Assembly (NCBI GenBank): GCA_016186635.1
Contig: JACPLI010000014.1
Coordinates: forward strand, 804-64,803
Source of the DNA: Candidatus Liptonbacteria bacterium
GTDB taxonomy: Bacteria; Patescibacteriota; Minisyncoccia; UBA6257; 2-01-FULL-56-20
Direction of reading: 5' to 3'
Length of the DNA: 64,000 nucleotides
Of this stretch, positions 2,259-54,416 are shown one piece after another (the first letter of the stretch is position 1; the number at the start of each line of letters is the position of its first letter). The notes beneath the pieces were generated by a model. It searched no databases. It was not told the origin of the DNA and saw only the letters and a program-made list of their open reading frames with translations. A program made the translations under genes and the position numbers.

Positions 2259-3101
2259 ATGAGCGCGAGCGCAACAAGCGGAACAGGCACGGGCGGTGGA
2301 ACACCTCCAGCGGGCGGTGGAACACCTCCAGCGGGCGGTGGAACACCTCCAGCGGGCGGTGGAACACCTCCAGCGGGCGGTGGAACACCTCCAGTTCGGC
2401 GGCGTATCCTTATCGGACTCGCAATGGTAGTGGGTGCCGGACTCATCATCTTCGGCGCCTTCACGGCGGGTAAGAAATCAACGAGTGGTCCACCCTCAAA
2501 TCCTCCGGGGGTGGGCGGCGGGAGTACCAATGCGGTGCAACAAACCCAACCCAAGGGACAAAGCATGGCTAATCTCCCGCCTGGGTCGGGAGGGTCCACC
2601 GGCGGCACTGGCACCATCACTGCGGCTCCAGGGTCGGCCCTTGCCATCGGCAACCAACTCCATGTTCACATAGGGAAAGATGGGACGGTAACCACGGGGA
2701 CGAACACACCGTCAGGAGGACCACAAACTCCCGCGACAGGGCGATTCACTGCTGACGGACTCTTCGTGTTCTCATTGGAAGACGGCACAGGAGAAGTTGA
2801 GCCGTTTCCAAACGAACATGAATTCTGGGGGCTTCTCAACTACACCGGCACCAACACCACAAAGTGGGCGACAATTCCGGAGAGAGCACCGGATTTCGCC
2901 GTCACCCCGCAGAACATCGGGTTCTCCGTCCAATTCTCGCGGGGAGACGTGGAAGACCCCACGAACTGGACGCCGTGGTACAAGTTGTCGCCGACGGGGC
3001 CGGACGTTGATATCCCCGGAAAGCCGACGGCGTACCGCCTCCAACACACAAACAGTGTGGCGGCGGCGAGAATTCACCTTCTCTTCAAGAAAAGGTCCTA
3101 G
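2259..3101 (+). CDS. repeat-containing membrane-anchored/secreted protein
   Basis: N-terminus has 5 x GGGTPPA, one TM helix ILIGLAMVVGAGLIIFGAF, then Gly/Thr/Pro-rich ectodomain; no known domain. Confidence 0.6.
   Translation: MSASATSGTGTGGGTPPAGGGTPPAGGGTPPAGGGTPPAGGGTPPVRRRILIGLAMVVGAGLIIFGAFTAGKKSTSGPPSNPPGVGGGSTNAVQQTQPKGQSMANLPPGSGGSTGGTGTITAAPGSALAIGNQLHVHIGKDGTVTTGTNTPSGGPQTPATGRFTADGLFVFSLEDGTGEVEPFPNEHEFWGLLNYTGTNTTKWATIPERAPDFAVTPQNIGFSVQFSRGDVEDPTNWTPWYKLSPTGPDVDIPGKPTAYRLQHTNSVAAARIHLLFKKRS
2293..2398 (+). repeat. perfect tandem repeat 5 x 21 bp inside CDS
   Basis: unit ggcggtggaacacctccagcg repeated 5 times without mismatch, encoding (GGGTPPA)5. Confidence 0.85.
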
Positions 3102-4036: not shown

Positions 4037-6610
4037 CTAAATCACCACCACGCCAGCGACTCTATCGCCGGAGTTGAGGTTCATAATCCGCACGCCCTGC
4101 GCGGAGCGGCCCGTCTGGCGGACGCTTTTGAGCTCCGTGCGGATGACCTGCCCCTTTGCCGAGAGCGCGAGGAGTTCCGTCTCCTCGCCGAGGACGATGC
4201 CCGCAACCACCTTTCCCGTCTTCTCCGTCACCTTCGCCGTGCGAATCCCGGAGCCGCCGCGGTGCTGGGTTTTGTATTCCTTGAGCGGCGTCCGCTTGCC
4301 GAACCCCTTTTCCATCACCGCGAGGAGCTCCGCCGTGTCGCTCTTCTTCACCACGTCGAACCCCGCAACCGCGTCGCCGTGGCGAAGCCGGATGGCGCGC
4401 ACGCCCGCGGCGCCGCGCCCCATGGGCCTCGCCTGCGACTCCGCAAAGCGGATGGACTGGCCCTTCTCCGTCACGAGCACCACTTGGTCATCGCCCTTCG
4501 AGAGCCGGACCCACTTCAGCATGTCGCCTTTTTTTCCGCCGGAGGCGGATCCGGAGGTCCCTTTCCCGCCAGAGGCGGGTCCGCCTCGGGCGGAGGCGGA
4601 GAGCTTCATCCCGATAATCCCCGTGCGCCGGATATTTTCAAAGTCCTTCAAAGCGGTTTTCTTTATCATGCCGTTTTTGGTCACCATCACGAGATAGCGA
4701 TGAGCGATGAGTGATGAGTGATGAGTCTCCGATGCCTTGTTTCTTGCCCCTTGCTCGCCCCGTGGCGAAGCTGTACGGGGTTCCTTGTTACTCGATGGCA
4801 CATTGACGATCGCGCTTATGTTCTCGTCTGCGGGAATCTCAAGGAAATTGTGAATCGCTTTCCCCTTCGCGGTGCGGCTCGCGGCGGGAATCTCATACGC
4901 GCGCGTTTCGAATACTCTCCCGCGGCCGGTGAAGAAGAGTATCCGGTCGTGCGTGTTCGCGTGGAAGAAGTGCGAGAGGAAATCCTCCTCGGCGACATCA
5001 GACCCAATAAGCCCCTTGCCGCCACGCCGCTGGGCTTTGAAGGTGTCGGGCGGGAGGCGCTTCACATACCCCGACGCGGAGAAGGTAATAATTGCCTCTT
5101 CCTCGGGCACGAGGTCCTCGTCGGTCATCTCCTTCAAGGCATGCGCGACCACGTGCGTCCGGCGCGCCTCGCCATACTTCGCCTTGAGTTCCATGAGCTC
5201 CTTTTTCACCACCTCAAGCATCCGCGTGGGACTCTTCAAAATGAGCGTGAGTTCCTTGATGAGCGTGCGTTTTTCTTTAAGCTCGGCTTCGATTTTCTGC
5301 CGCTCCAATGCCGCGAGCGTCTGGAGCTTCATTTCCAAAATCGCGGCTGCCTGCGCCTCCGAGAGCGTGAAGTGCTTCATCAAGTTCGCCCTCGCGTCCT
5401 CGCGGTCCTTCGATTTCTTGATGGTGGCAATCACTTTGTCTATCGCATCAAGCGCCTTTGCGAGCCCCTCCAAAATATGCGCCCGCTCCTCCGCCCGCTT
5501 CAAGTCAAACTGCGTGCGGCGCTTCACCACCTCCCGCCGGTGCGCGACGTACGCGAGGAGCATCTCCTTCAAAGAGAAGAGTTCCGGCTGGATGCCGTCC
5601 CGCAAGGCAATCATGTTGAAATGGAAATCCTTCTGGAGGTCGGAGTGCTGGTAGAGCTGGTTTAAGATTTTCTGCGGCGCGGCATCGGACTTTAGTTCCA
5701 CCACGATGCGGAGCCCCTCGCGGTCGGACTCGTCGCGAAGGTCGCGGATGCCCTCGATTCTCTTCTCCTGCACAAGTTCCGCGATGTGCTTCACGAGCTC
5801 GGACTTGTTCACCTGGTAGGGAATCTCCGTAATCACGATGTCGAACCCCGCGCGCGTACTCTCTCCCTTCTTTCGCTCCACAATCTCCGCCTTCGCCCGG
5901 GTCGTGACCGCCCCCCGTCCCGTCGCGTATGCCGCCTTCACTGCCGCGCGGTCGTAAATCACGCCGCCCGTGGGAAAATCCGGCCCCTTCACATATTCGA
6001 GCAAATCCTCCGCCGCGGCGTTCGGCTTTTCGATAAGGAGCAGGGTTGCATCCACCACCTCCACCAAGTTGTGCGGCGGGATTGAGGTTGCCATCCCCAC
6101 CGCAATGCCCAAGGTGCCGTTCACGAGGAGGTTCGGAACCTTCGCAGGAAGCACCTTCGGCTCATCGCGGGTCGCATCGTAGTTCGGCTGCCAGTCCACC
6201 GTGTCTTTCTCGATATCAAACAGCATCTCCTCCGCGACTTTCGAGAGGCGCGCCTCCGTGTACCGCATCGCGGCGGGAGAATCCCCGTCCTGTGAACCAA
6301 AATTACCCTGGCCCCACACAAGGGGGTATCGCATGGAGAAGTCCTGCGCCATCCGCGCCAGCGTGTCGTAAATCGCCACGTCGCCGTGCGGGTGGTACTT
6401 CGCCATCGTCTCGCCCACCACGTTTGCCGACTTCCTGAATTTCGCGAGATGCGTGAGCCCTATGGACCACATGGTCCACAGCACCCTCCGGTGCACCGGC
6501 TTCAGCCCGTCGCGCACGTCCGGCAGGGCGCGCGCGACAATCACTGACATCGCGTAGTCGAGGTAGGATTCCTTTAACTCACTGGTGATTTCCCGTTTTT
6601 CGATATTCAT
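4037..6610 (-). CDS. gyrA: DNA gyrase subunit A
   Basis: 857 aa; N-terminal EITSELKESYLDYAMSVIVARALPDVRDGLKPVHRRVLW and catalytic-Tyr region AAMRYTEARL are GyrA hallmarks; C-terminal beta-pinwheel repeats. Confidence 0.95.
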   Translation of the reverse strand: MNIEKREITSELKESYLDYAMSVIVARALPDVRDGLKPVHRRVLWTMWSIGLTHLAKFRKSANVVGETMAKYHPHGDVAIYDTLARMAQDFSMRYPLVWGQGNFGSQDGDSPAAMRYTEARLSKVAEEMLFDIEKDTVDWQPNYDATRDEPKVLPAKVPNLLVNGTLGIAVGMATSIPPHNLVEVVDATLLLIEKPNAAAEDLLEYVKGPDFPTGGVIYDRAAVKAAYATGRGAVTTRAKAEIVERKKGESTRAGFDIVITEIPYQVNKSELVKHIAELVQEKRIEGIRDLRDESDREGLRIVVELKSDAAPQKILNQLYQHSDLQKDFHFNMIALRDGIQPELFSLKEMLLAYVAHRREVVKRRTQFDLKRAEERAHILEGLAKALDAIDKVIATIKKSKDREDARANLMKHFTLSEAQAAAILEMKLQTLAALERQKIEAELKEKRTLIKELTLILKSPTRMLEVVKKELMELKAKYGEARRTHVVAHALKEMTDEDLVPEEEAIITFSASGYVKRLPPDTFKAQRRGGKGLIGSDVAEEDFLSHFFHANTHDRILFFTGRGRVFETRAYEIPAASRTAKGKAIHNFLEIPADENISAIVNVPSSNKEPRTASPRGEQGARNKASETHHSSLIAHRYLVMVTKNGMIKKTALKDFENIRRTGIIGMKLSASARGGPASGGKGTSGSASGGKKGDMLKWVRLSKGDDQVVLVTEKGQSIRFAESQARPMGRGAAGVRAIRLRHGDAVAGFDVVKKSDTAELLAVMEKGFGKRTPLKEYKTQHRGGSGIRTAKVTEKTGKVVAGIVLGEETELLALSAKGQVIRTELKSVRQTGRSAQGVRIMNLNSGDRVAGVVVI
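4531..4600. repeat. GC-rich hairpin element inside gyrA (family CCGCCnnaGGCGGaTCC / TCCGCCTCGGGCGGA)
   Basis: ccgccggaggcggatcc ... cgccagaggcgggtccgcctcgggcggaggcgga; same motifs intergenic at 7629 and 33391; here translated as SASARGGPASGGKGTSGSASGGKKG. Confidence 0.55.
4697..4727. repeat. heptamer tandem array (GATGAGY)x4 in frame within gyrA
   Basis: gcgatgagcgatgagtgatgagtgatgagtc; minus-strand reading gives ETHHSSLIAHRY inside GyrA. Confidence 0.8.
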
Positions 6611-6644
6611 AGTGGATGAGTGATGAGTGATGAGTGATGAGTGA
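6611..6644. repeat. heptamer tandem array (TGATGAG)x4 abutting gyrA start codon
   Basis: agtggatgagtgatgagtgatgagtgatgagtga directly 5' of gyrA ATG (6610-6608, minus). Confidence 0.8.
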
Positions 6645-6684
6645 AATTTGCCCGCTCACCACTTGCCACTCCTCACTATTGTTA

Positions 6685-6993
6685 CTATTTCATCGGTTTC
6701 ACAATATATTCCCTGGACCCTTTCAGTAGTTCGCCAATTCGTCCGAAGGCGTCCGCCACATTATCGTAGAGCACGGCGCTCCCGCGCCGCATTGTCGCCC
6801 AAAACGACGCTCCCGTTTCCTCTCCGGCGCCCGCGGTGCGCGCGCCTCCCGCATCCGCAAGGAGGTTGTTGAAGTACACAAGCCACACGTAAAGCACCAC
6901 CACCATTGCCACCGCGGAACCCGCGATGAGCACGCGCCGCTTCGTGGTGGCGTCAGCTCCTTGGAGCCGTTTCAAAAAACCTTCGGTGTTCAT
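6685..6993 (-). CDS. hypothetical small membrane protein
   Basis: 102 aa, one TM helix VLIAGSAVAMVVVLYVWLVYF; same strand upstream of gyrA; preceded by (GGAACAA)n array at 6996-7025. Confidence 0.4.
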   Translation of the reverse strand: MNTEGFLKRLQGADATTKRRVLIAGSAVAMVVVLYVWLVYFNNLLADAGGARTAGAGEETGASFWATMRRGSAVLYDNVADAFGRIGELLKGSREYIVKPMK

Positions 6994-7020
6994 TGATTTT
7001 TGTTCCTTGTTCCTTGTCCC

Positions 7021-7593
7021 TCATGCGGACTTGAGCCCAATGGTTTTTGTCCCCTGCATCGCAACGAGGTCTTTCTTTCGGAAGACAAATTTCTCCTCGG
7101 CTCCGCCGCTTTCACCCATCTCCTTGAGGAATGACGCAGGAGATTTCTCATACGCGGGGATGACCACCTTCGGCTCGAGCTGGCGCACCACCTTCTCCGC
7201 GGCTTCGTCGCTTAAATATTTCGCGCCGAGCCGAAGGAACACCACGTCCGGCTCGTTCAGTTTCTCCAGCGCGTCCGCCTCAAGGCCTTTCGCGAGAGGA
7301 CCTAAAAACGCGAACTTCACATCCTCCCACCGCACGAGATACGCGGTGTGCGCCCGCCCGGCTCCCACCGGAAGCGCAATACCGCGCACTTCTATCCCCT
7401 TGGACTCGTATTCGCCGGGGAACGCGACCTCCGTCTGCGGACCCGGTTCCGCGTCGGGAGCAGGAATTTCTGCGTCGGTTTTCAAGACCACATCGCCCTT
7501 CAAGCGGTTTGATGGGGGGTCAACGAGCACCGAAACATCGCCGCTCTGGATGCGGAACGAACCCTCGCCGAGATAGGTGATAACCACGAGCAT
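7021..7593 (-). CDS. MBL-fold-like protein with degenerate metal-binding motif
   Basis: From internal ATG 7593: MLVVITYLGEGSFRIQSGDVSVLVDP resembles N-terminus of UPF0173/MBL hydrolases but the HxHxDH His ligands are replaced; ORF-track N-terminal 27 aa are translation of a hairpin repeat. Confidence 0.4.
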   Translation of the reverse strand: MLVVITYLGEGSFRIQSGDVSVLVDPPSNRLKGDVVLKTDAEIPAPDAEPGPQTEVAFPGEYESKGIEVRGIALPVGAGRAHTAYLVRWEDVKFAFLGPLAKGLEADALEKLNEPDVVFLRLGAKYLSDEAAEKVVRQLEPKVVIPAYEKSPASFLKEMGESGGAEEKFVFRKKDLVAMQGTKTIGLKSA

Positions 7594-7628
7594 AGTATAG
7601 CCGAAATCCAGGATAATTTCCAATGATT

Positions 7629-7657: not shown

Positions 7658-7766
7658 CAATTATCAATTTTCAAAAAATGCGTCGTAGAGAACCGATTGA
7701 AAATTGAACATTGATACTTGAAAATTCAGAAACGCGGGCTTGCGTTTCTGGGAAATCCCCGTATAA

Positions 7767-10369: not shown

Positions 10370-10445
10370 GTCCCCGTAGCTTAACGGATAAAGCGGCTCC
10401 CTTCTAAGGAGTAGACTGCAGGTTCAAGTCCTGCCGGGGACACCA
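10370..10445 (+). tRNA. tRNA-Arg (anticodon TCT), CCA encoded
   Basis: GTCCCCG-TA-GCTT-AACGGATA-AAGC-G-GCTCC-CTTCTAA-GGAGT-AGACT-GCAGG-TTCAAGT-CCTGC-CGGGGAC-A-CCA. Confidence 0.9.
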
Positions 10446-11218
10446 TGAAACTCATCTCACTAAACGCGTTCGGCGGCAAGGCGTATGCACCGCTCATGGA
10501 GTTCGTGAAGGAGCATGCTCCAACGACGGACATTTTCTGCCTTCAAGAGATATTTTCTTCGCCATCGCCCGTACACGAGAGCCACGGGGCGCGCATGAAC
10601 CTCTTTGAAGAACTGGGTGCCGCACTTCCTGATTTCCAAGGGCTCCTTGCGTCAGAGCAGGATGGGTGGGACTTCCAAGGACCCGTTGGCTTCCCCGTCT
10701 CCATGGGCAACGCCTTGTTTGTCCGGCGCACATTCCCCATTGCATCGTCGGGTAACTTTTTCGTGTACCTCGCAAAAAATAAAGTGATTGACAACCAACA
10801 CTTTCCGCAAAGCGTCATCTATACACGCCTTGAAATACGGGGTGCGCGGCTCACCGTTGCCAATTTCCACGGCATCCCCCAGCCCGGGCATAAACTCGAC
10901 ACGCCGGAGCGGCTCGCGCAGTCGCAGCGCATTTGCGAGTTTTTGGCGCGCGAACCCGGCGCGAAGATTCTCTGCGGCGATTTCAACCTTCTCCCCGGCA
11001 CGCAGTCCCTTGCGCTGGTTGAGAAAGATATGCGGAACCTCATCACGGAATTCAGCATCGAGCGCACCCGGAGCCGGCTTTCCCCGTTTTTCGGCAAGCC
11101 CGACTTTCAACCCTTCGCGGACTACATATTCACCTCTCCCCGCATACACGCAACGCGCCTTGAAGCGCCCGACGTCCAAATCTCCGACCACTTGCCGCTC
11201 GTGCTCGAGTTTTCGTAA
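10445..11218 (+). CDS. endonuclease/exonuclease/phosphatase (EEP) family protein
   Basis: 257 aa; N-terminal DIFCLQE and C-terminal ISDHLPLVLEF are typical EEP catalytic motifs; ATG overlaps CCA of tRNA-Arg. Confidence 0.75.
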   Translation: MKLISLNAFGGKAYAPLMEFVKEHAPTTDIFCLQEIFSSPSPVHESHGARMNLFEELGAALPDFQGLLASEQDGWDFQGPVGFPVSMGNALFVRRTFPIASSGNFFVYLAKNKVIDNQHFPQSVIYTRLEIRGARLTVANFHGIPQPGHKLDTPERLAQSQRICEFLAREPGAKILCGDFNLLPGTQSLALVEKDMRNLITEFSIERTRSRLSPFFGKPDFQPFADYIFTSPRIHATRLEAPDVQISDHLPLVLEFS

Positions 11219-13769: not shown

Positions 13770-14642
13770 TTATCGGGTCAAGCCCGATAATGACAATTGG
13801 GGGGTGTTATTCACCAAGCTCTTCTCATTCAACTTGTAGAAATTTTCGAAAAGCTTCGCGACAAGGATAGGTCCCGTGCCGCCAGGGGTGGGGGTGTAGG
13901 AAATAGTAGCGAGCGATGAGTGGCGAGTGGCGAGACTGCTGGAATCGAAGTCACCGAGAAGCTTGCCGCCCACGGAGTCGTACCCAAAATCAACCACAAG
14001 CGCGCCTTCTTTAAGCGTCTCTGCATTGAAAAGCCCTGCCTTGCCAGCGCCGGAGATTACCACATCACAGTTCTTGAGGATGGCAAAGTCCGCGCCGCGG
14101 CCCAACACATACAATTCACTCACCTTCCGCATGAGCCAGACCGCAATCGGCTTCCCGATGAGCATCCCCGCACCGATGACCGCCACTCGCTTACCCTTGA
14201 GGTCAACCTTCGCGCGCCGCAGGACCTCCTCCACGGTCGCGACCGCAGGGTGCAATACCTTCGCGCGGTTGTTGTAGTGGGCGCCCAGCGTCCGCTCGCT
14301 CAAGCAATCGGGGTCCTTCTCCGGCGGAATCGCATTCACGATGTAGGTGGCGTTCAGCGGCTCGGGGAGCGGCAGCTGCACAATCACGCCGCCGCAGGTT
14401 TTCCCCGCCGCGAGTTTTCCCACTTTCTCGCGGAGCGCATCATTCCCTAGGGCAGGAGCAAGTTTATAAATACGATAATCAATTCCCAGCCCTTTCGCGG
14501 TGTCCTGCTTTAGTTTTTGAAAACTTTCGGATGCGGGGTCATCGCCAATTAAAACTCCGGCGAAGAATTTCTTCGGCTTTGGCTTTTCTTTGAGGCGCCC
14601 GAGAAGCTCGGCGGCGATTTTTTTCCCGTCAATCATTGGCAT
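13770..14642 (-). CDS. folD: bifunctional methylenetetrahydrofolate dehydrogenase/cyclohydrolase
   Basis: MPMIDGKKIAAEL..., GVIVQLPLP, ...TPTPGGTGPIL FolD motifs; start placed at ATG 14642 (track start is a TTG within a heptamer array); C-terminal tail reads through hairpin repeats. Confidence 0.88.
   Translation of the reverse strand: MPMIDGKKIAAELLGRLKEKPKPKKFFAGVLIGDDPASESFQKLKQDTAKGLGIDYRIYKLAPALGNDALREKVGKLAAGKTCGGVIVQLPLPEPLNATYIVNAIPPEKDPDCLSERTLGAHYNNRAKVLHPAVATVEEVLRRAKVDLKGKRVAVIGAGMLIGKPIAVWLMRKVSELYVLGRGADFAILKNCDVVISGAGKAGLFNAETLKEGALVVDFGYDSVGGKLLGDFDSSSLATRHSSLATISYTPTPGGTGPILVAKLFENFYKLNEKSLVNNTPQLSLSGLTR
13917..13948. repeat. heptamer array (GAGTGGC/GATGAGT) in frame within folD
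   Basis: gtagcgagcgatgagtggcgagtggcgagactg encodes insert SSSLATRHSSLATIS just before the conserved TPxPGGxGP motif. Confidence 0.75.
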
Positions 14643-14644
14643 AG

Positions 14645-14770
14645 CAAGTGGCAAGTGGCAAGTAGTATGTAGCGAGTAGTATGGAGCAGGGAATAAGAAA
14701 AGTAAACGCGAATAAGCAAAAAAACCGCTTCGCTTCGCTATTCGCTACTTGCTACCCGCTACTTGCTCAC
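14645..14770. repeat. inverted pair of heptamer arrays (GCAAGTG)n ... (CTACTTGC)n forming a long hairpin
   Basis: gcaagtggcaagtggcaagtagtatgtagcgagtag ... ctacttgctacccgctacttgctcac; between glyA stop and folD start. Confidence 0.6.
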
Positions 14771-16086
14771 GCATCTATCCCCGGCACCGGGAACTTCGTC
14801 GCAAGCGCTTTCACGCGTTCGCGGATTTTCTTCACTGTTTCATGCCCCTCAAGCGTTTTCTCAAAATCTCTCACCGCCTGCGCGCGCTTCTCTTTCTCAT
14901 CCGGCAACGGAGTTGTCGCGAATGCCTTCACCACTTCCGCAATCCATGTGCCGATGACTACCATTTCCTTTTCCTTCATACCGCGCGTGGTGAGTGCTGG
15001 TGTTCCCAAGCGGATGCCCGAAGGATAAAACGGCACCGAAGGGTCGTTCGGCACCGTCGTGAAGTTCGTGTTGATTTCGGCGGCTTCAAGCGCCTTCGCG
15101 ACAAAGACCCCGCGCCCCGGCCCGAAGGGGCGTAGGTCAATGAGCATGAGGTGGGTTTCGGTCCCACCCGAGACAAGTTTCAACCCCTCTTTAATAAGTG
15201 TCGCGGCAAGAATCGAGGCATTTTTCACAATTTGCGCGGCATAGTCCTTAAATTCCGGCCGCAAGGCCTCCCCCAACGTCACGGCAATCCCCGCAATCGT
15301 GTGCTCGTGAGGCCCACCCTGCATGCCCGGGAACACCGCTTTGTCTATTTTCTCCCGCAGTTCTTCCTTGCAGAAAATCAGCGCCCCCCGCGGCCCGCGC
15401 AACGTCTTGTGCGTGGTAGTCGTCACCACATCCGTTGAGGGGAAAGGCGAGGGGTGTGCGCCGCCGATGACGAGCCCCGAGATATGCGAAATATCCGCCA
15501 TCGAAATTGCGCCGATGGAGCGCGCAATCAAAGCCATTTTTTCAAAATCCACCTTCCGCGGGTACGCGGTAAATCCGGAGAGGATGAGCTGCGGCTTCGT
15601 TTTCTCCGCGAGCTTTTGAATCGCGTCGTAGTCGAGCACTTCCTTCTCCGCATCGAGCGGATAAAACACGAAGTTGAAAAGCTTCCCCGAGGCGTTCACT
15701 GGCGAGCCGTGCGTGAGGTGCCCGCCCTGGTCGAGCCGCAAGGACATGATGGTGTCTCCGGGTTTCAATAACCCGAGGTACACCGCAAGGTTCGCGGGGC
15801 TCCCCGAATACGGCTGGACGTTTACATGATACCCTTCGGCATTGAACGCTTTCAAGGCGCGCGCCTGCGCAAGACGCTCCACCTCGTCAATGTGGACATT
15901 CCCGCTGTAGTAGCGGCGCCCCGGGTACCCCTCGGCATACTTGTCGTTCAAAATGCTCCCCGCCGCCTCAAGCGCGGCGGCAGAGGCGTAGTTCTCCGAA
16001 GGAATCATTTCGAGTCCCTCTTTCTGCCGTTTTTTCTCGCGCTCGATGATGGCGAAAACTTCGGGGTCTTGGGATGCGAGATTCAT
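14767..16086 (-). CDS. glyA: serine hydroxymethyltransferase
   Basis: LEMIPSENY, PLP-site THKTLRGPRG, GMQGGPHEHTIAG; start at ATG 16086 (MNLASQDPEV); upstream track extension is translation of AGTAATT repeats. Confidence 0.95.
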   Translation of the reverse strand: MNLASQDPEVFAIIEREKKRQKEGLEMIPSENYASAAALEAAGSILNDKYAEGYPGRRYYSGNVHIDEVERLAQARALKAFNAEGYHVNVQPYSGSPANLAVYLGLLKPGDTIMSLRLDQGGHLTHGSPVNASGKLFNFVFYPLDAEKEVLDYDAIQKLAEKTKPQLILSGFTAYPRKVDFEKMALIARSIGAISMADISHISGLVIGGAHPSPFPSTDVVTTTTHKTLRGPRGALIFCKEELREKIDKAVFPGMQGGPHEHTIAGIAVTLGEALRPEFKDYAAQIVKNASILAATLIKEGLKLVSGGTETHLMLIDLRPFGPGRGVFVAKALEAAEINTNFTTVPNDPSVPFYPSGIRLGTPALTTRGMKEKEMVVIGTWIAEVVKAFATTPLPDEKEKRAQAVRDFEKTLEGHETVKKIRERVKALATKFPVPGIDA

Positions 16087-16160
16087 AGTAATTGAGTAAT
16101 TAGTAATCAAGTAATTGGGGACGAATTACATATTTACCCAATTACATAATTACAGACGCG
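16087..16160. repeat. heptamer arrays (AGTAATT)x4 and (AATTACA)x3 abutting glyA start codon
   Basis: agtaattgagtaattagtaatcaagtaattgggg...gaattacatatttacccaattacataattacag. Confidence 0.75.
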
Positions 16161-17342: not shown

Positions 17343-17963
17343 TCAGCGATTTCTGCTTGTCCAAAGATTCGCCCACCACGCGGAGGGTTCCACTTCATAG
17401 ATTGCCCTGCCAAGTTCCTTTGAGGACTTGAGCTTTAGTTTCTTGAGCTGCGCGTTTGTGCGGAGCTTCCCTTTCCCTTCGTAGAGCCATTTCATCGCCT
17501 CGCGGTTCCCCTGCCACTCGTACTCGCGGAGCAGGAGAATCTCGTCGAGCAGGTCCGCGTCCTTCGCGATAATCGCTTCTTTTTTCTTCCGCGCCTCGTA
17601 CTCGCGCGCGAGCATGTGGAGGTCGCCGAAGGGCAATCCGCCGAGCTGCTCCGTGATAATCTCATCGTTGAACACTTTCATGTACCGCTTGTGCACCCAG
17701 TTGTGGTCATTGCTCCGCGCTTCGCCTAAATCGTGAAGCAATGCCATAAGCACTACTTTTCCCACGTCCGCGCGTTCTTTCCTCGCAAGCGCCCATGCAA
17801 TCAGCGCCACGCGGAAGGAGTGCGAAGCGATGTTGTCCGACATATCGTCAGTCAACAGCGTCTGCCGGTGCACGCGCAAAAGCTTCCGCATTGTCCCCGC
17901 CTCGAAGAGGAAGTTGGCAAGCTTCTCATCGCGGTTCCTGCGGGAATTGCGCCGTTTCGTCAT
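17343..17963 (-). CDS. HD-domain phosphohydrolase (YfbR-like 5'-deoxynucleotidase family)
   Basis: HSFRVALIAWALA ... VLMALLHDLGEARSNDHNW contains the H..HD metal motif; adjacent to dcd/dut. Confidence 0.7.
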   Translation of the reverse strand: MTKRRNSRRNRDEKLANFLFEAGTMRKLLRVHRQTLLTDDMSDNIASHSFRVALIAWALARKERADVGKVVLMALLHDLGEARSNDHNWVHKRYMKVFNDEIITEQLGGLPFGDLHMLAREYEARKKKEAIIAKDADLLDEILLLREYEWQGNREAMKWLYEGKGKLRTNAQLKKLKLKSSKELGRAIYEVEPSAWWANLWTSRNR

Positions 17964-18037
17964 GGGGTGCCCGACGGGGATTGAACCCGTGTCATCCCGG
18001 CCACAGCGGGAAGCTTTGCCACTAAGCTACGGGCACC
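17963..18037 (-). tRNA. tRNA-His (anticodon GTG) with G-1 and encoded CCA
   Basis: G-GTGCCCG-TA-GCTT-AGTGGCA-AAGC-T-TCCCG-CTGTGGC-CGGGA-TGAC-ACGGG-TTCAATC-CCCGT-CGGGCAC-C-CCA; CCA overlaps start codon of HD gene. Confidence 0.9.
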
Positions 18038-18152
18038 ATCTCGCAGGGGAAGTGTACTACAAAGGTTCAACCTTCGGCAATCTCCCCGAAAAGCTCCGCA
18101 CGGGGCAGGCAAGGTGGAACCTTGAATGATTCCGCTTTTTTTCGTATGCTCT

Positions 18153-18190
18153 AGTAGCTGTAGCTAATGGCTATTGGCTAATCGCTATCT
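18153..18190. repeat. 7-nt-periodic array (GCTAATG/GCTATTG/GCTAATC/GCTATCT) abutting ftsH start codon
   Basis: tagtagctgtagctaatggctattggctaatcgctatct directly 5' of ATG 18191. Confidence 0.6.
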
Positions 18191-23687: not shown

Positions 23688-24275
23688 CTACTGCTTCACT
23701 ATCGCGTCAAACCGGTCCATTGCCTGCCCGGCTTGGCCGTTGAACGTGTTGATTGCCTGCACTTCCGCGTTAATCTGGTTCACGAGCACCGCTACCTGCT
23801 TCGCCGAGCCGGGGACTCCCTTGAAACGCCCCTCGAGCGCCTGCAGGAGCTCGCTCAAGTAGTTGCTGTAGCTGATAAGCTTGTTTAAAAGCGCCAAGCG
23901 GCTCGCGATGGACTCAAGCGCCGCCTGCCGCGCCTCGAAGGACTGAATGCCGGAGAGCGCCTTCGTCATCGCGCCGATTTCGTCTGCGAGCGCCACCGCC
24001 TGGTTGCGAATCGCCTCACTCTGCTTCGTGGCATCGAGTGTAATGGCAAGCGCCTCGGAGAACTTCCCCTTCTTGTCGAGCTCGCTGATTTTCTCGATGC
24101 TCGTTCGGGAATCGTTCGAAAGGTTCACAATGTTTTGGGAGATGAGCGCTCCCCGAAGGCGGGCGTCTTGGAACTCCGAAGGGATTCCTTGCGAGAAGGA
24201 AAAGAGCCGGCTCGCGCCGTAGCCGGCGGCCACAATTACCACAAACGCAAGGAATAATTTGGTGCGGCGGGACAT
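23688..24275 (-). CDS. hypothetical membrane-anchored coiled-coil protein
   Basis: start at internal ATG 24275 (MSRRTKLFLAFVVIVAAGYGAS = TM anchor); remainder Ala/Gln/Leu-rich helical; track N-terminal extension overlaps tRNA-Gly. Confidence 0.45.
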   Translation of the reverse strand: MSRRTKLFLAFVVIVAAGYGASRLFSFSQGIPSEFQDARLRGALISQNIVNLSNDSRTSIEKISELDKKGKFSEALAITLDATKQSEAIRNQAVALADEIGAMTKALSGIQSFEARQAALESIASRLALLNKLISYSNYLSELLQALEGRFKGVPGSAKQVAVLVNQINAEVQAINTFNGQAGQAMDRFDAIVKQ

Positions 24276-24369
24276 GCGTTCTTCTCCTTTGTAGCGCATC
24301 TTGGGGAAATAATCAACGGGTCTTGAGTAAGCGGTAGGGAGTAGGTAGTATGTGGTAGGGAAAACCGAA

Positions 24370-28705: not shown

Positions 28706-28800
28706 CCCGACGCTTCGGTCGGGGCTCCGACTCCCGCCGCAACGGGACGCCGGAGCTAATAACTTATGACTTATGACAAATGACCTTTCTCACTCTCACT
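28706..28800. repeat. hairpin ccccgacgcttcggtcgggg plus heptamer arrays (CTTATGA, CTCACTC, CTCTTAC)
   Basis: between hppA start and nusA stop; nusA C-terminal tail [14 protein letters not shown] is encoded by the arrays. Confidence 0.5.
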
Positions 28801-31227: not shown

Positions 31228-31444
31228 GACTGTATGTGAGGAGAGAATTTTGAGCTAATTTTCCATATTTTTGCCGGATTAACTCGGCAAAGGATTGCCT
31301 ATTTTACCTGCCTCTTTCTTGCCGATTTATCCACCTACTCTTGCCGCATACAGGGGATTATCCACAGAATCGTGCACAGATGGGGGCGACCGGCCAATCA
31401 ACCGCCACTCAGCAACTTCATCGAGATTGTGGGTGGGGGAGCAT

Positions 31445-34522: not shown

Positions 34523-36388
34523 ATGGACGCTCCTCTGAACCCGGAACAGCAGAAAGCCGCTTCCGCCCCGCACGGACCCCTCCTCATTGTTGCAGGGGCA
34601 GGCACCGGCAAGACGAAGACGCTCACGAGCCGGCTCCTCCGCCTCATAGAGGAAGGAGTTGTCCCGTCTTGCATCTGTGCGCTCACGTTTACGAACAAGG
34701 CGGCGAAGGAAATGGCGAACCGCGTCGCGACGATGACGAATGACCATAACGATGACGGCGGTCATAGTCATCGTCATAGTCATCGTATGAACGACCTGCC
34801 CTTCATCGGCACATTCCACTCGCTCGGGGCAAAAGTTCTCCGCGCTGAAGCGCGTGCAGTGGGGCGAACGCAGGGTTTCACCATCTTCGACGACGGCGAC
34901 TCGCTCTCCGCAATGAAGAAAGTTATGAAAGAACTTGACTTCCGCACGGGCAAACCCGCACAGGCGCTCCGCTACATTTCGTGGAAAAAAAGCGGGGCGG
35001 GAGAAGGCGTGGATGCCGGCACGCGTGACGACAAAAAGATATTTGAGCGTTACGAGGCATTCCTCGCCCGCGCAAACGCATTCGACTTCGATGACCTCAT
35101 CGCAAAGACAGTTGCGCTCTTCGAGCACAGCCCCGAGACGCTCGCGCGATATCAGAAGCGTTATACGCACATCCTCGTTGACGAATACCAAGACGTGAGC
35201 CCCGCGCAATACACGCTCGTGCGGCTCCTCGCGGGACGGCGCGCCCACGTGAGCGTCGTAGGAGACGACGCGCAGATGATTTACGGGTGGCGCTACGCAA
35301 ATCTCGACACGTTCCTTCACTTTGAGCGCGACTGGCCCGGCGCCCGCGTCGTGCTCCTCGAAGAAAACTACCGCTCTACCGCAATAATCGTCCGCGCCGC
35401 CTCTGCCGTCGCCGCGCAGAATGCGTTCGCCCGCAAAAAAGAACTCTGGACGCGGAATCCCGACGGAGAGCTCCTCACTATTGCCGAAACCGCGGACGAG
35501 GACGATGAAGCGGAGTGGGTGGGCGCGCAAATTGCGCGCACTATGACAGATGACGATCACCATGACGCCGGTTATCGTCATAGTCATGGTCATGGTCACG
35601 CCGGCAACTCCGTTGCCGTGCTCTACCGCACGAACGCCCAGTCGCGCGCGCTCGAGCAGGCGCTCCTCCGCCGCAACATTACGTACAAAATTTATGGAGG
35701 TCTGAAGTTCTACGAACGCCGCGAAATAAAAGACATCGTGGCGGGACTTCGTCTTGCGATAAACCCTCGAGACGAAATGAGCCGCGACCGCTTAGAAAAG
35801 GCCTTCCGGGTACGCGTGTTTGAAAACGTCGTGGCTACACTCACGAAGTGCGGTGGAACTTCCCCGCGCGCAGCAATCGAGAAGTTTCTTGCCGCTACGG
35901 ACTATTTTGAACATCTCGAGCGCGAAACCACGAACGCGGAAGAGCGCCGGGAAAACATCACCGAACTCCTCCGTTTTGCGGAGGGCTTCACCAACCTTGC
36001 TGATTTTCTCGAGCACGTTTCCCTTGTGCAGTCCACCGATGATGTGAACGCGAATTGCCAATTGCCAATTGCCAATTGCCAACCAGTGGTACATCTCTCC
36101 ACCATCCACCTCGCCAAGGGGCTTGAGTTCGACCGGGTGTTCCTCGCGGGATGTGCGGAAGGGCTCCTCCCGCACGCCCGCTCCATAGAAACGGAAGATG
36201 CAACAGAAGAAGAACGGCGGCTTATGTATGTGGGGATGACGCGCGCGCGGAAGAAGCTCTCGATTTCATTCTTCGGGATTCCCTCGAGGTTCCTTGGAGA
36301 AATCCCGGAAGATCTCATGGCGTACGAGAAAACCTCCGGCGCGGCCGATGATGAAAATAGTGAGGGGGCAGCGATTCAACTCAACTAG
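34523..36388 (+). CDS. UvrD/PcrA-family ATP-dependent DNA helicase
   Basis: Walker A GAGTGKT, motifs ILVDEYQD, VGDDAQMIYGWR, TIHLAKGLEFD, VGMTRAR; carries three in-frame heptamer-array inserts. Confidence 0.9.
   Translation: MDAPLNPEQQKAASAPHGPLLIVAGAGTGKTKTLTSRLLRLIEEGVVPSCICALTFTNKAAKEMANRVATMTNDHNDDGGHSHRHSHRMNDLPFIGTFHSLGAKVLRAEARAVGRTQGFTIFDDGDSLSAMKKVMKELDFRTGKPAQALRYISWKKSGAGEGVDAGTRDDKKIFERYEAFLARANAFDFDDLIAKTVALFEHSPETLARYQKRYTHILVDEYQDVSPAQYTLVRLLAGRRAHVSVVGDDAQMIYGWRYANLDTFLHFERDWPGARVVLLEENYRSTAIIVRAASAVAAQNAFARKKELWTRNPDGELLTIAETADEDDEAEWVGAQIARTMTDDDHHDAGYRHSHGHGHAGNSVAVLYRTNAQSRALEQALLRRNITYKIYGGLKFYERREIKDIVAGLRLAINPRDEMSRDRLEKAFRVRVFENVVATLTKCGGTSPRAAIEKFLAATDYFEHLERETTNAEERRENITELLRFAEGFTNLADFLEHVSLVQSTDDVNANCQLPIANCQPVVHLSTIHLAKGLEFDRVFLAGCAEGLLPHARSIETEDATEEERRLMYVGMTRARKKLSISFFGIPSRFLGEIPEDLMAYEKTSGAADDENSEGAAIQLN
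34761..34789. repeat. heptamer array (GTCATAG/TCATCGT)x4 in frame in helicase
   Basis: gtcatagtcatcgtcatagtcatcgtatg encodes GHSHRHSHRM; antisense gives spurious MTMTMT ORF. Confidence 0.8.
35571..35599. repeat. heptamer array in frame in helicase
   Basis: gttatcgtcatagtcatggtcatggtcac encodes YRHSHGHGH. Confidence 0.8.
36053..36075. repeat. heptamer array (AATTGCC)x3 in frame in helicase
   Basis: aattgccaattgccaattgccaa encodes NCQLPIANCQ immediately before conserved TIHLAKGLEFD. Confidence 0.8.
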
Positions 36389-37662: not shown

Positions 37663-38502
37663 ATGCCAGGAGCAAGATTAGGCCAGCACTTCCTCCGTGA
37701 CCAAGGCGCCCTCCGCGCGGTTGCGGCGGCGCTCGAGCTCGCGCCGGGCGACACCATTATCGAAATCGGCGCGGGGCATGGGGAGCTCACGGAAGAGTTG
37801 ATGAGTGAAAAGTGGAAAGTGAAGAGTGGAGAAAAAATACAAGTTCTTGCCATAGAAAAAGATTCGCGGCTTGCAAGAACGCTTCGAGAAAAATACTCGC
37901 GAAGCAGGAACATTGAAATAGTCGAGGGCGATGTGCGAACCGTATTGCCCTCCTTACTCACCACTTCTCACTCATCACTCGCCACTCGCCACTCGCCACT
38001 CGTTTACAAGCTCTGCGGCAACATCCCCTACTACCTCACTGGGTTTCTCTTCCGCATCGTGAGCGAACTTGAGCCGCTCCCCGCGCGGGCGGTGTTCACC
38101 ATTCAGAAAGAAGTTGCGGAGCGAATTGATGCAAAACCGCCGCACATGAATCAGCTTGCGGCGAGCGTGCAGTTCTGGGCGGAGCCGAAAATAATCCGCG
38201 TGGTTCCTCGGAGCGCGTTCTCACCGGCGCCAAAAGTGGACTCGGCGATTCTATTACTCAACCCTGTCATAAAAAAGGGAGAAAGAGGAGAAAAGGGGGA
38301 AAGGGGGAAATACTATGCGGCGGTCCATGCGCTCTTCTCCCAACCCCGCAAGACCATTCTGAACAACGTGGCGGCGGCGCTCCACGTGCCGAAAGAAGAA
38401 GCCGCACACACGCTTCATGAAGCGGGGATAGCTCCTCTCGCCCGCGCGCAGAACCTTTCTGTTGCAGATATCAAAAAGATATCCTCGCTTTTCCCGCTTT
38501 GA
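37663..38502 (+). CDS. rsmA: 16S rRNA (adenine1518/1519-N6)-dimethyltransferase
   Basis: GQHFLRD, SAM motif IIEIGAGHGELT, GNIPYY; contains three low-complexity in-frame inserts (37797-37835, 37952-38002, 38275-38315). Confidence 0.85.
   Translation: MPGARLGQHFLRDQGALRAVAAALELAPGDTIIEIGAGHGELTEELMSEKWKVKSGEKIQVLAIEKDSRLARTLREKYSRSRNIEIVEGDVRTVLPSLLTTSHSSLATRHSPLVYKLCGNIPYYLTGFLFRIVSELEPLPARAVFTIQKEVAERIDAKPPHMNQLAASVQFWAEPKIIRVVPRSAFSPAPKVDSAILLLNPVIKKGERGEKGERGKYYAAVHALFSQPRKTILNNVAAALHVPKEEAAHTLHEAGIAPLARAQNLSVADIKKISSLFPL
37952..38002. repeat. heptamer array (CTCAYCA/CTCGCCA)x7 in frame within rsmA
   Basis: ccttactcaccacttctcactcatcactcgccactcgccactcgccactcg encodes SLLTTSHSSLATRHSPL between conserved EGDV and KLCGNIPYY. 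Confidence 0.8.
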
Positions 38503-46112: not shown

Positions 46113-46168
46113 ACAAGTGGTGAGTGATGAGTGGTGAGTGGGGAGTGGTTAAGTGGCGAGTGATGAGG
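46113..46168. repeat. heptamer array (GTGGTGA/GTGATGA/GTGGGGA...)x8
   Basis: ggacaagtggtgagtgatgagtggtgagtggggagtggttaagtggcgagtgatgagg. Confidence 0.8.
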
Positions 46169-54387: not shown

Positions 54388-54416
54388 TGGGATATTATAG
54401 TGGGGAGTGATAAGTG

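Follow-up and report, generated by a model that had tools for sequence, protein, structure and literature searches.

Heptanucleotide tandem arrays at start and stop codons of Candidatus Liptonbacteria, a lineage with little use of Shine-Dalgarno sites

A tandem array of heptamers stands directly before the start codon of gyrA in a Candidatus Liptonbacteria bacterium, a member of the Candidate Phyla Radiation (CPR). The locus raises the question of whether such arrays replace the Shine-Dalgarno (SD) site, as was proposed in a sequence-only reading of the same DNA, or whether they are found at start codons for another reason. The window analyzed in this work is the whole stretch of 64,000 nt from contig JACPLI010000014.1 (assembly GCA_016186635.1). 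At a score of at least 10, 26 period-7 tandem arrays were found in the window with our own detector, compared with 1.0 expected by chance from dinucleotide shuffles, and 11 arrays reached a score of at least 12, compared with 0 in the shuffles. The neighbouring periods were not enriched at the score of at least 10 (2 vs. 0.2 for period 5, and 3 vs. 0.4 for period 8). The arrays of the window are confirmed as genuine, strongly over-represented and specific to period 7. Their 7-nt units run head to tail in at least three copies according to both TRF and our own detector (e.g., 6615–6644, with 4.3 copies and 100% matches). More than 10 unrelated heptamers occur within the window, which is not a fixed set of units of the STRR1–3 kind, and a few unit families recur in it, namely CACTCAT/GATGAGT, AAGGAAC, and TTGAAAA. 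The features discussed below are collected in Table 1.

Table 1. Positions of heptamer arrays and associated features in the window (numbering of the window).
Feature	Position	Strand	Description
In-frame CACTCAT array	4696–4726	-	Inside gyrA; part of a 20–25-aa loop insertion in the C-terminal domain
CACTCAT x4.3 array (sense)	6611–6644	-	3' arm of the hairpin between hyp5 and gyrA, 0–4 nt before the gyrA ATG; from TRF, sequence, and fold
Degenerate complementary arm GTGAGGA GTGGCAA GTGGTGA	6650–6687	-	Starts at the UAG codon that ends the 102-aa ORF 6685–6993
AAGGAAC x3 array	6994–7020	-	Occupies the entire 27-nt gap from the MBL-fold gene stop to the hyp5 ATG
Inverted TTGAAAA/AATTTTC arrays	7658–7731	.	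Divergent MBL/S1-protein intergenic region
Inverted arrays, glyA stop to folD start spacer	14643–14766	-	5' GCAAGTA-type, 3' CACTTGC-type; hairpin z = -4.04
Inverted AATTACT/AATTACA arrays, period 7–8	16087–16154	.	Between divergent glyA (ATG 16086, -) and dcd (ATG 16222, +)
ftsH promoter-like region and array	18122–18190	+	TTGAAT 18122–18127, 17-nt spacer, TATGCT 18145–18150, GCTAATG array 18153–18190
TACCTAC-type array	24327–24359	-	Upstream of the hypothetical gene 23688–24275
GTCATAA-type array	28756–28784	-	Overlaps the nusA stop codon
In-frame perfect AATTGCC x4.3 array	36050–36082	+	Inside the UvrD/PcrA-like helicase gene; splits the Pfam UvrD_C match
Inverted array pair AGTGAAA ... CACTCGC	37799–38002	+	Inside the ksgA coding region
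Seven in-frame arrays (AAGGAAC; GATGAGT/CCCTCAC pairs)	44678–45183	+	Low-complexity half of ORF 44123–45544
AAGGAAC array	45882–45910		prgI-like gene
AGTGGTG x7 array	46116–46167	+	prgI-like stop to IVP-like gene (46181–46582); TRF
CCCTCAC/CACTTAT array	46583–46652	+	5' leader of the virB4-like gene (ATG 46653); TACAAT box 46565–46570
CACTTAT-type array	54388–54432	-	Over the rnpA stop; then TATAAT (54394–54399), 6 nt, yidC ATG (54387)
Putative oriC unwinding element upstream of dnaN	56674–56739	+	DnaA-box-like ATATCCACA, 4-nt spacer, 8 NAN trinucleotides (TAACAGTAACAGCAGTAACAATAA), AT-rich tract
Inverted ATGAC/GTCAT arrays, period 6–7	61142–61207	-	yebC stop to ruvC start spacer; hairpin z = -3.59
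Inverted TTGAAAA-type arrays	61748–61849	.	Divergent yebC/pilB region

The placement of the arrays was evaluated over seven loci (178 kb), with a random position inside the same intergenic region as the null. The arrays are mostly intergenic, with a density of 2.2 per kb in intergenic regions compared with 0.20 per kb in coding sequences (CDSs), and 32 of the 77 arrays are CDS-internal. Eleven of the 36 intergenic arrays lie within 4 nt of a start codon, compared with 6.8 expected (p = 0.023); in the first four loci alone, the numbers were 5 and 2.7 (p ~ 0.10). The enrichment near starts relative to random intergenic positions is thus present in a modest form. Within 4 nt of a stop codon, 11 arrays were found and 5.5 expected (p = 0.0005), and within 4 nt of either a start or a stop, 19 and 9.3 (p < 1e-4), so the hugging of stop codons is no weaker than that of start codons. 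The earlier picture of arrays at starts only has to be widened accordingly to stops, CDS interiors, and an architecture of inverted pairs. None of the 36 intergenic arrays of the seven loci occupies a convergent (stop-stop) region, where 4.4 were expected (P ~ 0.012), which suggests a link between the arrays and the 5' sides of genes or transcribed spacers. A metagenome scan for further relatives yielded three loci only. Across 68 diverse loci, array density was compared with low SD use by means of a crude proxy and with loci that are not independent of each other (Spearman -0.23, p = 0.046; Mann-Whitney p = 0.29).

Six of the arrays named in the sequence-only reading do end next to the start of gyrA, glyA, ftsH, the virB4-like gene, ruvC, or folD, at a distance of 0–4 nt where 0–3 nt had been stated. 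The starts of the array-abutted genes are supported by Pfam domain onsets, independent gene calls, and the N-termini of orthologues; they are located at 16084–16086 (-) for glyA, 18191 for ftsH, 46653 for the virB4-like gene, and 61139–61141 (-) for ruvC. At folD the array was said to overlap the start at 14645; it adjoins the start, but the ATG is at 14640–14642 (-) and the array begins at 14644. The glyA and ruvC arrays are of mixed period 6–8 and not of pure period 7, and it is the glyA-proximal arm of the inverted pair between glyA and dcd that adjoins the glyA ATG. It was also correctly noticed that some N-termini in the list of open reading frames are translated arrays, as is the case for the longest ORFs of glyA, folD, and virB4. 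The block before dnaN (56686–56739), which had been listed as a seventh heptamer array, is not one: it consists of a DnaA box and a run of NAN trinucleotides and is conserved in five genomes. The DnaA-box-like ATATCCACA at 56674–56682 is followed by a 4-nt spacer and eight NAN trios, candidate counterparts of the published 3'-GAT-5' consensus. This block matches the search pattern of a DnaA box with at most two mismatches within 16 bp of at least three NAN trinucleotides (PMC8287927). The sequence of the element is conserved in the genomes L086, L088, and L089, and three tandem DnaA boxes are found in L090. The minimum of the cumulative GC skew lies at about 54–56 kb, in the dnaA-dnaN region. 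The dnaN block appears to be a conserved oriC element and not a leader array.

Whether the arrays stand in for SD sites was evaluated from the use of SD sites in general. SD 5-mers at gaps of 6–11 form a weak peak (21 vs. 5.6 expected over 171 starts), and about one gene in 10 has an SD site; the hypothetical gene 23688–24275, which has an array upstream, is among these few with its SD-like AAAGGAG. On the other hand, a TANNNT box ending 6–7 nt before the start was found in 34 of the 171 genes, compared with about 4.5 expected, and this sharp peak has the placement expected for leaderless mRNAs. Examples are ksgA, yidC, dcd, pilB, and yebC. The motifs at yidC (TATAAT, 6 nt, ATG) point to an arrangement of the leaderless type. 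In both directions of the yebC/pilB region, a -10 box conserved in four genomes is located between array and ATG (TATGCT and 6 nt; TAGAAT and 7 nt), and therefore these arrays lie upstream of the -10 boxes of the promoters. At the array-abutted gyrA, glyA, folD, ftsH, virB4, and ruvC, neither a leaderless-type -10 box 6–7 nt upstream nor a canonical SD site was found. The absence of an SD site from these genes had been read correctly, but it is genome-wide and not specific to arrays. The proposed replacement of the SD site finds no support, as about 9 in 10 genes are without an SD site whether they have an array or not, at least 20% have a leaderless-type -10 box, and the versions of the same genes in relatives have leaders free of both arrays and SD sites.

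The role of 5' leader or intercistronic spacer fits several arrays, and at ftsH and virB4 the -10 or promoter motifs are found upstream of the array. It is solely from promoter motifs that we infer the transcription of the arrays. The ftsH promoter (TTGnnn-N17-TATGCT), directly upstream of the array, was missed by the consensus scan (8/12 matches), and its conservation in four genomes was used instead. According to this promoter motif, the 5' UTR of ftsH would be made up of the GCTAATG array. The ftsH leader is an array UTR in two genomes and a non-repetitive leader of 125 nt or 20 nt in two others, none of them with an SD site. At virB4, a TACAAT or TATAAT box precedes the array in four genomes. 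The suggestion that such leaders are purine-poor elements finds no support at the level of the clade, in which there is neither a G-poor bias nor a depletion of AUG. In the array-bearing upstream regions of the clade, no signature specific to translation was seen: G% equals C%, ATG occurs 13 times and CAT 18 times, and no difference in local folding or in the openness of the start was observed. All seven same-strand pairs of the window have the purine-rich arm on the 5' side in the direction of transcription and the pyrimidine-rich one on the 3' side. A rule of G-poor, pyrimidine-rich sense strands was rejected, since it fits the CACTCAT family and these seven window pairs and fails across the clade (G% = C%); the corresponding rule of sense-strand polarity is reversed in the AATTAGA-type hairpins of the clade.

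The flagged gyrA array was also proposed to be an unstructured standby site, whereas in the predicted RNA fold it forms the 3' arm of a strong hairpin. The perfect GATGAGT x4.3 run at 6615–6644 lies next to the gyrA ATG (6608–6610, -), and the hyp5-gyrA hairpin has a folding energy of -30.8 kcal/mol (z = -6.48). In this fold, base pairs join the UAG stop of the ORF 6685–6993 to the gyrA start region at C(-2), U(-1), and A(+1). Inverted pairs, in which an array is accompanied by its own reverse complement and the units are specific to the locus, were found at no fewer than 10 loci, and about half of the arrays form such pairs that fold into hairpins. In four cases the base of the hairpin joins the upstream stop with the downstream start: hyp5-gyrA, glyA-folD (UGA stop with AUG start), yebC-ruvC (UGA stop with the ruvC start region at A(+1), C(-1), and U(-2)), and folD of L093. 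No such bridge from stop to start is formed by the hairpins of L086 ruvC and L094 gyrA. Over 66 tandem intergenic regions, stop-start pairing was counted 14 times, compared with a shuffled expectation of 7.3. The arrays at 46116–46167 and 46583–46652 are complementary to each other. The idea of unstructured leaders applies to the virB4 and yidC arrays, which fold at -0.3 and -2.2 kcal/mol, respectively, and would be essentially structure-free RNA, but not to the gyrA array; the virB4 leader owes its low structure entirely to its composition (z = +0.55). Selection at the RNA level through G-U pairs was rejected, as the antisense folds are equal to the sense folds in stability or more stable. 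Intrinsic terminators were rejected as well: the array hairpins have no U-tracts, scans gave none at the arrays, and canonical terminators exist elsewhere (e.g., 60342–60385). Among known RNA families, the Rfam search at the gathering threshold returned only tRNAs.

The comparison with relatives shows that the arrays persist in place and not in sequence. They recur at the same junctions across genomes with 66–83% protein identity, and at orthologous junctions relatives carry arrays of unrelated units or none at all. Upstream of gyrA, the units in four genomes are CACTCAT, CGAAATC, AGAGATT, or ATAGCGA. The junction between the MBL-fold gene and hyp5 is a 4-nt ATGA overlap in L093 and an array of 27–42 nt in three other genomes, with ATGA or stop/start at both ends. 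The units at the folD and ruvC junctions turn over in the same way, and in L089 ruvC overlaps yebC. The 20–25-aa loop insertion of gyrA, of which an in-frame array is a part, is missing from homologues. Between near-identical sequences, the arrays were constant: five Logan assemblies (L001–L005) match the window without indels, and a comparison of L090 with L091, which come from different samples, gave 3 SNPs and 0 indels across 7.2 kb that take in arrays, in a small sample of consensus assemblies.

Several known repeat systems share some of these properties. REP/BIME elements of enterobacteria have one consensus, are spread by the RAYT transposase, and favour 3' ends and convergent regions. 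The arrays resemble them as imperfect palindromes in short operon intergenic regions, where REP/BIME are transcribed and form stable mRNA hairpins, but here each palindrome is made of its own heptamer unit and convergent regions are avoided. No gene for RAYT (Y1 transposase) was found among the 50 window ORFs scanned against Pfam. In translational coupling by unmasking or termination-reinitiation, the downstream start is paired with a sequence that is melted by the ribosome finishing the upstream ORF. Here, too, stop and start are spatially adjacent, although known coupling uses short conserved structures or overlaps of 1–4 nt, while putative coupling in the present case would be served by repeat hairpins of 60–125 nt. 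Mazel et al. are reported to have described heptanucleotide repeats (STRR) of cyanobacteria in 1990. The STRR and Nostoc repeats are likewise abundant intergenic 7-nt tandem arrays in an SD-poor phylum, but the cyanobacterial STRRs are few fixed sequences in many copies, the host here belongs to the CPR, and for STRR/Nostoc there is no evidence of stop-start bridging hairpins or rapid unit replacement. In Nostoc, heptamers lie within 100 nt of starts or -10 boxes and sometimes overlap the ATG, and the deletion of a heptamer repeat altered the activity of a recO reporter in both Nostoc and E. coli (bioRxiv 10.1101/2022.06.06.494920). The GGGAATC/GGGGAYT heptamers of Xanthomonas and Nostoc are G-rich and can form quadruplexes (PMC4692102), and the excess of heptamer SSRs was ascribed to polymerase slippage (Mrazek et al., 2007, as cited in PMC4692102). 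As in the present arrays, these repeats are intergenic, only period 7 is over-represented, some are inverted pairs, slippage is proposed as the origin, and length and sequence vary widely between close species at the same intergenic sites (PMC4692102); the present arrays differ in being mostly not G-rich and in having many units. The TAACTGA direct repeats of marine Beggiatoaceae occur in an SD-poor genome with 25% SD (MacGregor, 2015, PMC4679880). They share with the arrays the tandem heptamer, the mostly intergenic location, the ending within a few nt of the start, and the occupation of the expected position of the ribosome-binding site in an SD-poor genome, the array regions here being without SD sites; some overlap the ends of upstream ORFs or sit inside ORFs, and the downstream genes include essential ones. 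However, a single heptamer is used there genome-wide and dozens of units here, differing between orthologous sites; inverted repeats are nearly absent there (1/170) and make up about half of the arrays here; and the Beggiatoaceae repeats are oriented toward the start, whereas the present arrays abut stops as often as starts. The TAACTGA unit is in no array of the window.

We hypothesize, with about even confidence, that the arrays are slippage-born heptamers that would form part of transcripts, as 5' UTRs or as spacers between cistrons, and would be tolerated at starts as no SD site is needed there, some of the hairpins perhaps having been co-opted for coupling. The block at 6611–6644, as one hairpin arm, would belong to a family of heptanucleotide arrays spread over the whole genome in Candidatus Liptonbacteria. 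Such arrays would originate where 7 nt are duplicated locally or slippage occurs, typically between a stop and the next start, and the sequence of the unit would turn over fast. They would be located in 5' UTRs and intercistronic spacers or, in divergent regions, just upstream of -10 boxes. If initiation does not rely on SD pairing, the 20 nt before the ATG would be unconstrained and arrays could grow until they reach the CDS on either side. It would mean that the arrays abut starts and stops, and persist in frame in protein loops, because the region before the ATG is free of SD constraint, and that they are at start codons because the SD requirement is absent and not as substitutes for it. 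The form with a stop-start hairpin may be preferentially kept as it would hold stop and start together and so preserve translational coupling after the insertion. Some observations run counter to this permissive model, namely the lack of convergent arrays, the persistence at junctions, the purine/pyrimidine polarity of the arms, and the stop-start pairing at about twice the expectation. Moreover, simple slippage gives direct repeats, and inverted pairs need an extra mechanism or selection for pairing. The lack of convergent arrays, the persistence at junctions, and the stop-start pairing favour the reading, possible if on the doubtful side, that the arrays are functional elements for SD-independent initiation of operon-internal genes: G-poor single arrays would provide a structure-free landing (e.g., for ribosomal protein S1, whose gene is present in the window), and stop-start hairpins would mask the start until the terminating ribosome unmasks it, in strict coupling. 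The three bridging hairpins of the window (z = -6.5, -4.0, and -3.6), that of L093 folD, and the nearly structure-free virB4 and yidC leaders would fit such a role. However, the arrays are dispensable, since the same genes in relatives have overlaps or array-free leaders; the same arrays occur in CDSs; the clade has no depletion of G or AUG and no difference in openness; two hairpins fail to bridge; and sense RNA is no more stable than antisense, with the low structure at virB4 being compositional. It is unlikely, in our view, that polycistronic transcripts are punctuated by the stop-start array hairpins together with tRNAs that overlap the following gene's ATG through their encoded CCA, both acting as processing sites or as devices of ribosome hand-over that place the start at a 5' end or close to one, or pass it to the terminating ribosome.

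We consider it rather unlikely that the arrays are multivalent sites for a sequence-tolerant binder (a cold-shock-domain, S1, CsrA-like, or DNA-binding regulator) with a global transcriptional or post-transcriptional regulon. A binder has been proposed for both the Beggiatoaceae and the Nostoc repeats, the recO reporter responded to deletion, and a small number of unit families is reused across the window. The period of 7 nt fits the footprint of OB-fold single-strand binders. However, units that are diverse within one genome and replaced by unrelated ones at orthologous sites are hard to square with a specific binder, and the downstream genes have no common function. That a subset of arrays acts as promoter elements, with TTGAAAA-type units as -35-like hexamers or as an A/T-rich UP element upstream of divergent -10 boxes, is quite improbable. 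The yebC and pilB arrays do hold TTGAAA/TTGGAA 16–18 nt upstream of the -10 box, which in four genomes lies between array and ATG, and a scan of the MBL/S1 region gave TTGGAA-18-TATACT and TTGAAA-17-GAAAAT, but only 3–4 loci fit, and most arrays (CACTCAT, AAGGAAC, GTCAT) have no likeness to a -35 hexamer and are found after promoters or between genes of the same direction. Phase-variable switching, also raised in the sequence-only reading, would require that slippage by 7 nt in either direction alters promoter or UTR spacing or the frame and so toggles expression. A gain or loss of 7-nt copies within a CDS would shift the frame, as 7 cannot be divided by 3, and a few arrays are perfect (gyrA and uvrD with 4.3 copies, ORF 44123 with 4.7). 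Nevertheless, this is very improbable because gyrA, ftsH, glyA, folD, and ruvC have essential housekeeping roles, imperfect copies prevail among the arrays (73–95% matches in TRF), and the near-identical assemblies have no length polymorphism. The array-associated gyrA, ftsH, glyA, folD, ruvC, and yidC are not surface, virulence, or restriction-modification genes.

These arrays add the CPR to the cyanobacteria and Beggiatoaceae as groups in which heptamers stand at start codons, a little-studied phenomenon, and the permissive reading offers a unifying, testable reason for it, in that lineages independent of SD pairing would leave the region before the start open to repeat expansion. In practice, the arrays lengthen ORFs and mislead start calling in CPR genomes, which results in spurious N-termini, and they add repeat-encoded peptides to essential proteins such as GyrA. 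The stop-start hairpins and the abutments of tRNAs on ATG codons are concrete targets for work on operon-internal translation without SD sites. Punctuation of the kind described above, if true, would be comparable to the tRNA punctuation of mitochondria or to ribosome shunting, in a bacterial version built from fast-evolving repeats.

The heptamer arrays are a genuine feature of the window (GC content ~57%). NCBI assigns proteins identical to its DnaN, GyrA, and FtsH, encoded on a 69-kb contig, to Candidatus Liptonbacteria (Patescibacteria/CPR). With our own detector and TRF, period-7 arrays numbered 11 at a score ≥12, where dinucleotide shuffles gave 0, and 26 at a score ≥10, where 1.0 was expected; with the same detector scoring, tandem arrays of periods 5 and 8 were at background level. 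The gyrA ATG is preceded, on the gyrA strand, by four CACTCAT units and CCACT, and the arrays of glyA, ftsH, virB4, ruvC, and folD end 0–4 nt from ATGs that are backed by Pfam domain onsets and orthologue N-termini. This agrees with the sequence-only reading, as does the extension of longest-ORF calls into the arrays, by which ORF N-termini become translated arrays. Pfam also agreed with its gene identities (gyrA, folD, glyA (SHMT), ftsH, VirB4/TraG-like ATPase, and dnaA), and those of DnaN, RuvC, and YebC were backed by precomputed Pfam matches on independent Logan assembly gene calls. The folD start, previously placed at 14645, is at 14642, and the glyA and ruvC arrays are of mixed period 6–8.

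In 178 kb (the window and six syntenic relative loci with 66–89% identity for DnaN, GyrA, or FtsH), 77 arrays were counted, 36 of them intergenic (2.2 per kb) and 32 wholly within CDSs (0.20 per kb). Each of the 36 is in a region with a start on at least one flank; the 17 convergent regions have none, where 4.4 were expected. Compared with arrays placed at random inside their own intergenic regions, 11 intergenic arrays lie ≤4 nt from a start (6.8 expected, p=0.023; a start-only test with four loci gave p~0.10), 11 lie ≤4 nt from a stop (5.5 expected, p=0.0005), and 19 lie ≤4 nt from either (9.3 expected, p<1e-4). The suggested association with starts is retained because arrays are somewhat enriched there over random intergenic placement, but the filling of junctions from stop to start is the stronger pattern.

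The missing Shine-Dalgarno (SD) site is a property of the lineage and not of the arrays, and therefore the arrays do not replace an SD, as had been proposed. Among 171 starts (53 curated in the window plus database gene calls from the six relative loci), SD-like 5-mers at gaps of 6–11 nt occur at 21 against 5.6 expected, or about 1 gene in 10. The start consensus at –3 to –1 is A-C-T/C, and TANNNT ends 6–7 nt before the start in 34 genes against ~4.5 expected (about 20% of genes). A –10 box at this distance is the signature of leaderless mRNAs. Such boxes are kept across orthologues of pilB (TATAAT, TATAGT, or TAGAAT plus 7 nt), yebC (TATGCT plus 6 nt), and pbp (TACAAT). As far as we know, CPR have not been described as rich in leaderless genes, and literature searches found no such description. 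Two tRNA genes of the window share the A of their encoded CCA with a downstream ATG, and similar abutments occur in relatives (tRNA-Arg and the EEP-family gene 7 nt apart in L093; tRNA-His and a 137-aa ORF 1 nt apart in L097), which suggests that leaderless mRNAs may arise there via tRNA processing.

Roughly half the arrays come as inverted pairs (array, short loop, reverse complement), each with its own unit. At gyrA, the array makes up the 3' arm of one such pair: a fold of –30.8 kcal/mol (z=–6.48) is predicted for the 74-nt spacer between gyrA and the upstream 102-aa ORF (hyp5), and in this fold C(–2), U(–1), and A(+1) at the gyrA start are base-paired to the UAG stop of hyp5, so an unstructured standby site is not what is predicted here. 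Stop-start bridging was also predicted for the glyA–folD (z=–4.0) and yebC–ruvC (z=–3.6) junctions and, in L093, for folD; in 66 tandem intergenic regions it occurs 14 times against 7.3 expected, and the hairpins at L086 ruvC and L094 gyrA have no such bridge. Single arrays such as the virB4 and yidC leaders are nearly structure-free (–0.3 and –2.2 kcal/mol), which is purely compositional (z>0). A purine-5'/pyrimidine-3' polarity was found in 7/7 window pairs; AATTAGA-type hairpins in relatives have the opposite polarity. The clade-wide comparison showed neither a G-poor bias nor AUG depletion, and start-site openness did not differ. A PF05635-like gene, similar to members of the 23S-rRNA intervening-sequence protein family, has the prgI-like and virB4-like genes as neighbours and a heptamer array on either side, the two arrays being complementary to each other; the gene keeps this position in L086 and L089. 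Such a layout is reminiscent of the rRNA intervening sequences that RNase III excises.

A role as 5' leader fits some arrays. The ftsH promoter TTGnnn-N17-TATGCT is kept in four genomes, and the ~40-nt UTR after it is the array in the window and L097; the leader is non-repetitive in L096 (125 nt) and L098 (20 nt), and none of the four has an SD. In four genomes the virB4 array has a TACAAT or TATAAT box upstream. The arrays of yebC, pilB, and yidC are separated from the ATG by the –10 box and are therefore upstream of the promoter core. Their TTGAAAA units resemble –35 hexamers; as a general explanation of the arrays, promoter elements are quite improbable. The arrays upstream of gyrA in four genomes are CACTCAT, CGAAATC, AGAGATT/AATTTCT, and ATAGCGA, and folD is preceded by CACTTGC, TACCTAC, CGCTTAT, or no array. 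The junction of hyp5 with the upstream MBL-fold gene is an ATGA overlap in L093 and a 27–42-nt array with a stop on one side and ATG on the other in the window, L094, and L095; yebC–ruvC is an overlap in L089 and a hairpin in others. Arrays recur at these junctions without conservation of their sequence, and a junction can do without one; that the arrays mark protein-binding regulons is improbable. Phase-variable switches, also proposed, are unlikely and receive hardly any weight, as five Logan assemblies matching the window have no indels in arrays, L090 and L091, which come from separate JGI samples, show 3 SNPs and 0 indels between them in 7.2 kb including arrays, most arrays are imperfect, and the genes bearing them are essential.

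The best-supported account, to which we give about an even chance, is that of slippage-born heptamers tolerated in junctions. The repeats would be born by local duplication or slippage, the origin proposed for general heptamer excess (Mrazek 2007, as cited in PMC4692102), and would expand in junctions until coding sequence halts them; they may touch the ATG because the lineage needs no SD. That arrays are functional translation elements (coupling or processing) is less probable, though a reading with some life: tolerated slippage does not explain why there are inverted pairs whose matched arms are specific to a locus, why convergent regions are avoided, or why stops and starts are bridged. Heptamer arrays at start codons are already known, and the closest systems, the TAACTGA repeats of Beggiatoaceae (PMC4679880) and the heptamer repeats of Nostoc (10.1101/2022.06.06.494920), are also in SD-poor lineages, in keeping with tolerated slippage. 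Literature searches on heptamer arrays found nothing on CPR. To our knowledge, there is no earlier description of such arrays in CPR, nor of many units in one genome, of units quickly replaced at junctions that stay fixed, of inverted pairs as a frequent form, or of arrays inserted in-frame in essential proteins. Similar arrays at similar density, inverted pairs included, surround gyrA in loci L007 and L008 (bins labelled Gammaproteobacteria, possibly mislabelled; GyrA 55–56% identical to that of the window), L014 (a Peribacteria MAG), L059 (a Hydrogenedentes MAG, TTAGGCT x13 plus complement), and L060 (an Anaerolineae MAG). The phenomenon is therefore scattered widely.

Within genes, a CACTCAT array lies in-frame in the GyrA C-terminal domain as part of a 20–25-residue loop insertion; other CPR GyrAs lack this insertion, and close relatives have different ones in its place. 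GyrA of this clade (that of the window, P0122, and P0123) carries several lineage-specific loop insertions (857 aa vs ~806–815 in other CPR), including a Gly/Ser-rich one of 22 aa at residues ~690–712, and the N-terminal domain of P0123 holds one of 30 aa. Further in-frame arrays occur in the UvrD-like helicase, KsgA, and the prgI-like gene.

Features of the window and their coordinates
Feature	Coordinates	Description
gyrA array	6615-6644	perfect GATGAGT x4.3, plus strand
gyrA	4037-6610	
GyrA in-frame array	4696-4726	CACTCAT
ORF with in-frame arrays	44123-45544	seven arrays
21-nt tandem repeat	2290-2394	perfect CGGGCGGTGGAACACCTCCAG x5 (three heptamer lengths), in-frame in hypothetical ORF 2259-3101
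PF05635-like gene	46181-46582	arrays and gene span 46116-46652
tRNA-Arg(TCT) with start codon of the next gene	10370-10447	EEP-family gene ATG 10445, +
tRNA-His(GTG) with start codon of the next gene	17961-18036	HD-domain gene ATG 17963, -
MBL-fold gene start	7587-7623	probably GTG 7587 rather than ATG 7593; TTGGAA-18-TATACT ends at 7594, 6 nt before GTG; Pfam domain two codons later
dnaN block	56674-56739	DnaA box ATATCCACA (1 mismatch), 4-nt spacer, 8 NAN trinucleotides, AT-rich tract
DnaA-box matches	31327-31366	second pair, one perfect
ATTCGCGATTACTCCT	2091, 26315(-), 26458, 33439, 45587	dispersed 16-19-nt repeat; two copies directly abut ATGs of clpP (26317, -) and prgI-like gene (45603, +)
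TTCCCGCTTCCGCGGGAA	13722, 49090, 49135, 49906, 49951	perfect palindrome and close variants

The dnaN block, earlier listed among the heptamer arrays, is of another kind. Its eight consecutive trinucleotides (TAA CAG TAA CAG CAG TAA CAA TAA) follow a DnaA box, and four relatives keep its sequence, which holds for none of the true arrays. The block matches the pattern published for searches of oriC basal unwinding systems (PMC8287927). It lies directly upstream of dnaN, where the cumulative GC-skew minimum of the window falls (dnaA/dnaN), and is a probable oriC unwinding element; L090 has three tandem DnaA boxes at the equivalent position (~1640–1730).

Two other dispersed repeats were observed, each with 5 copies against 0.01 expected. 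Copies of ATTCGCGATTACTCCT are flanked by related 9-mer tandem copies ATTCGCGAT. Near 49.1 and 49.9 kb, the TTCCCGCTTCCGCGGGAA palindromes form pairs with a distance of ~45 nt; translation of the palindromes gives spurious 'SRESGN...FCGND' peptides.
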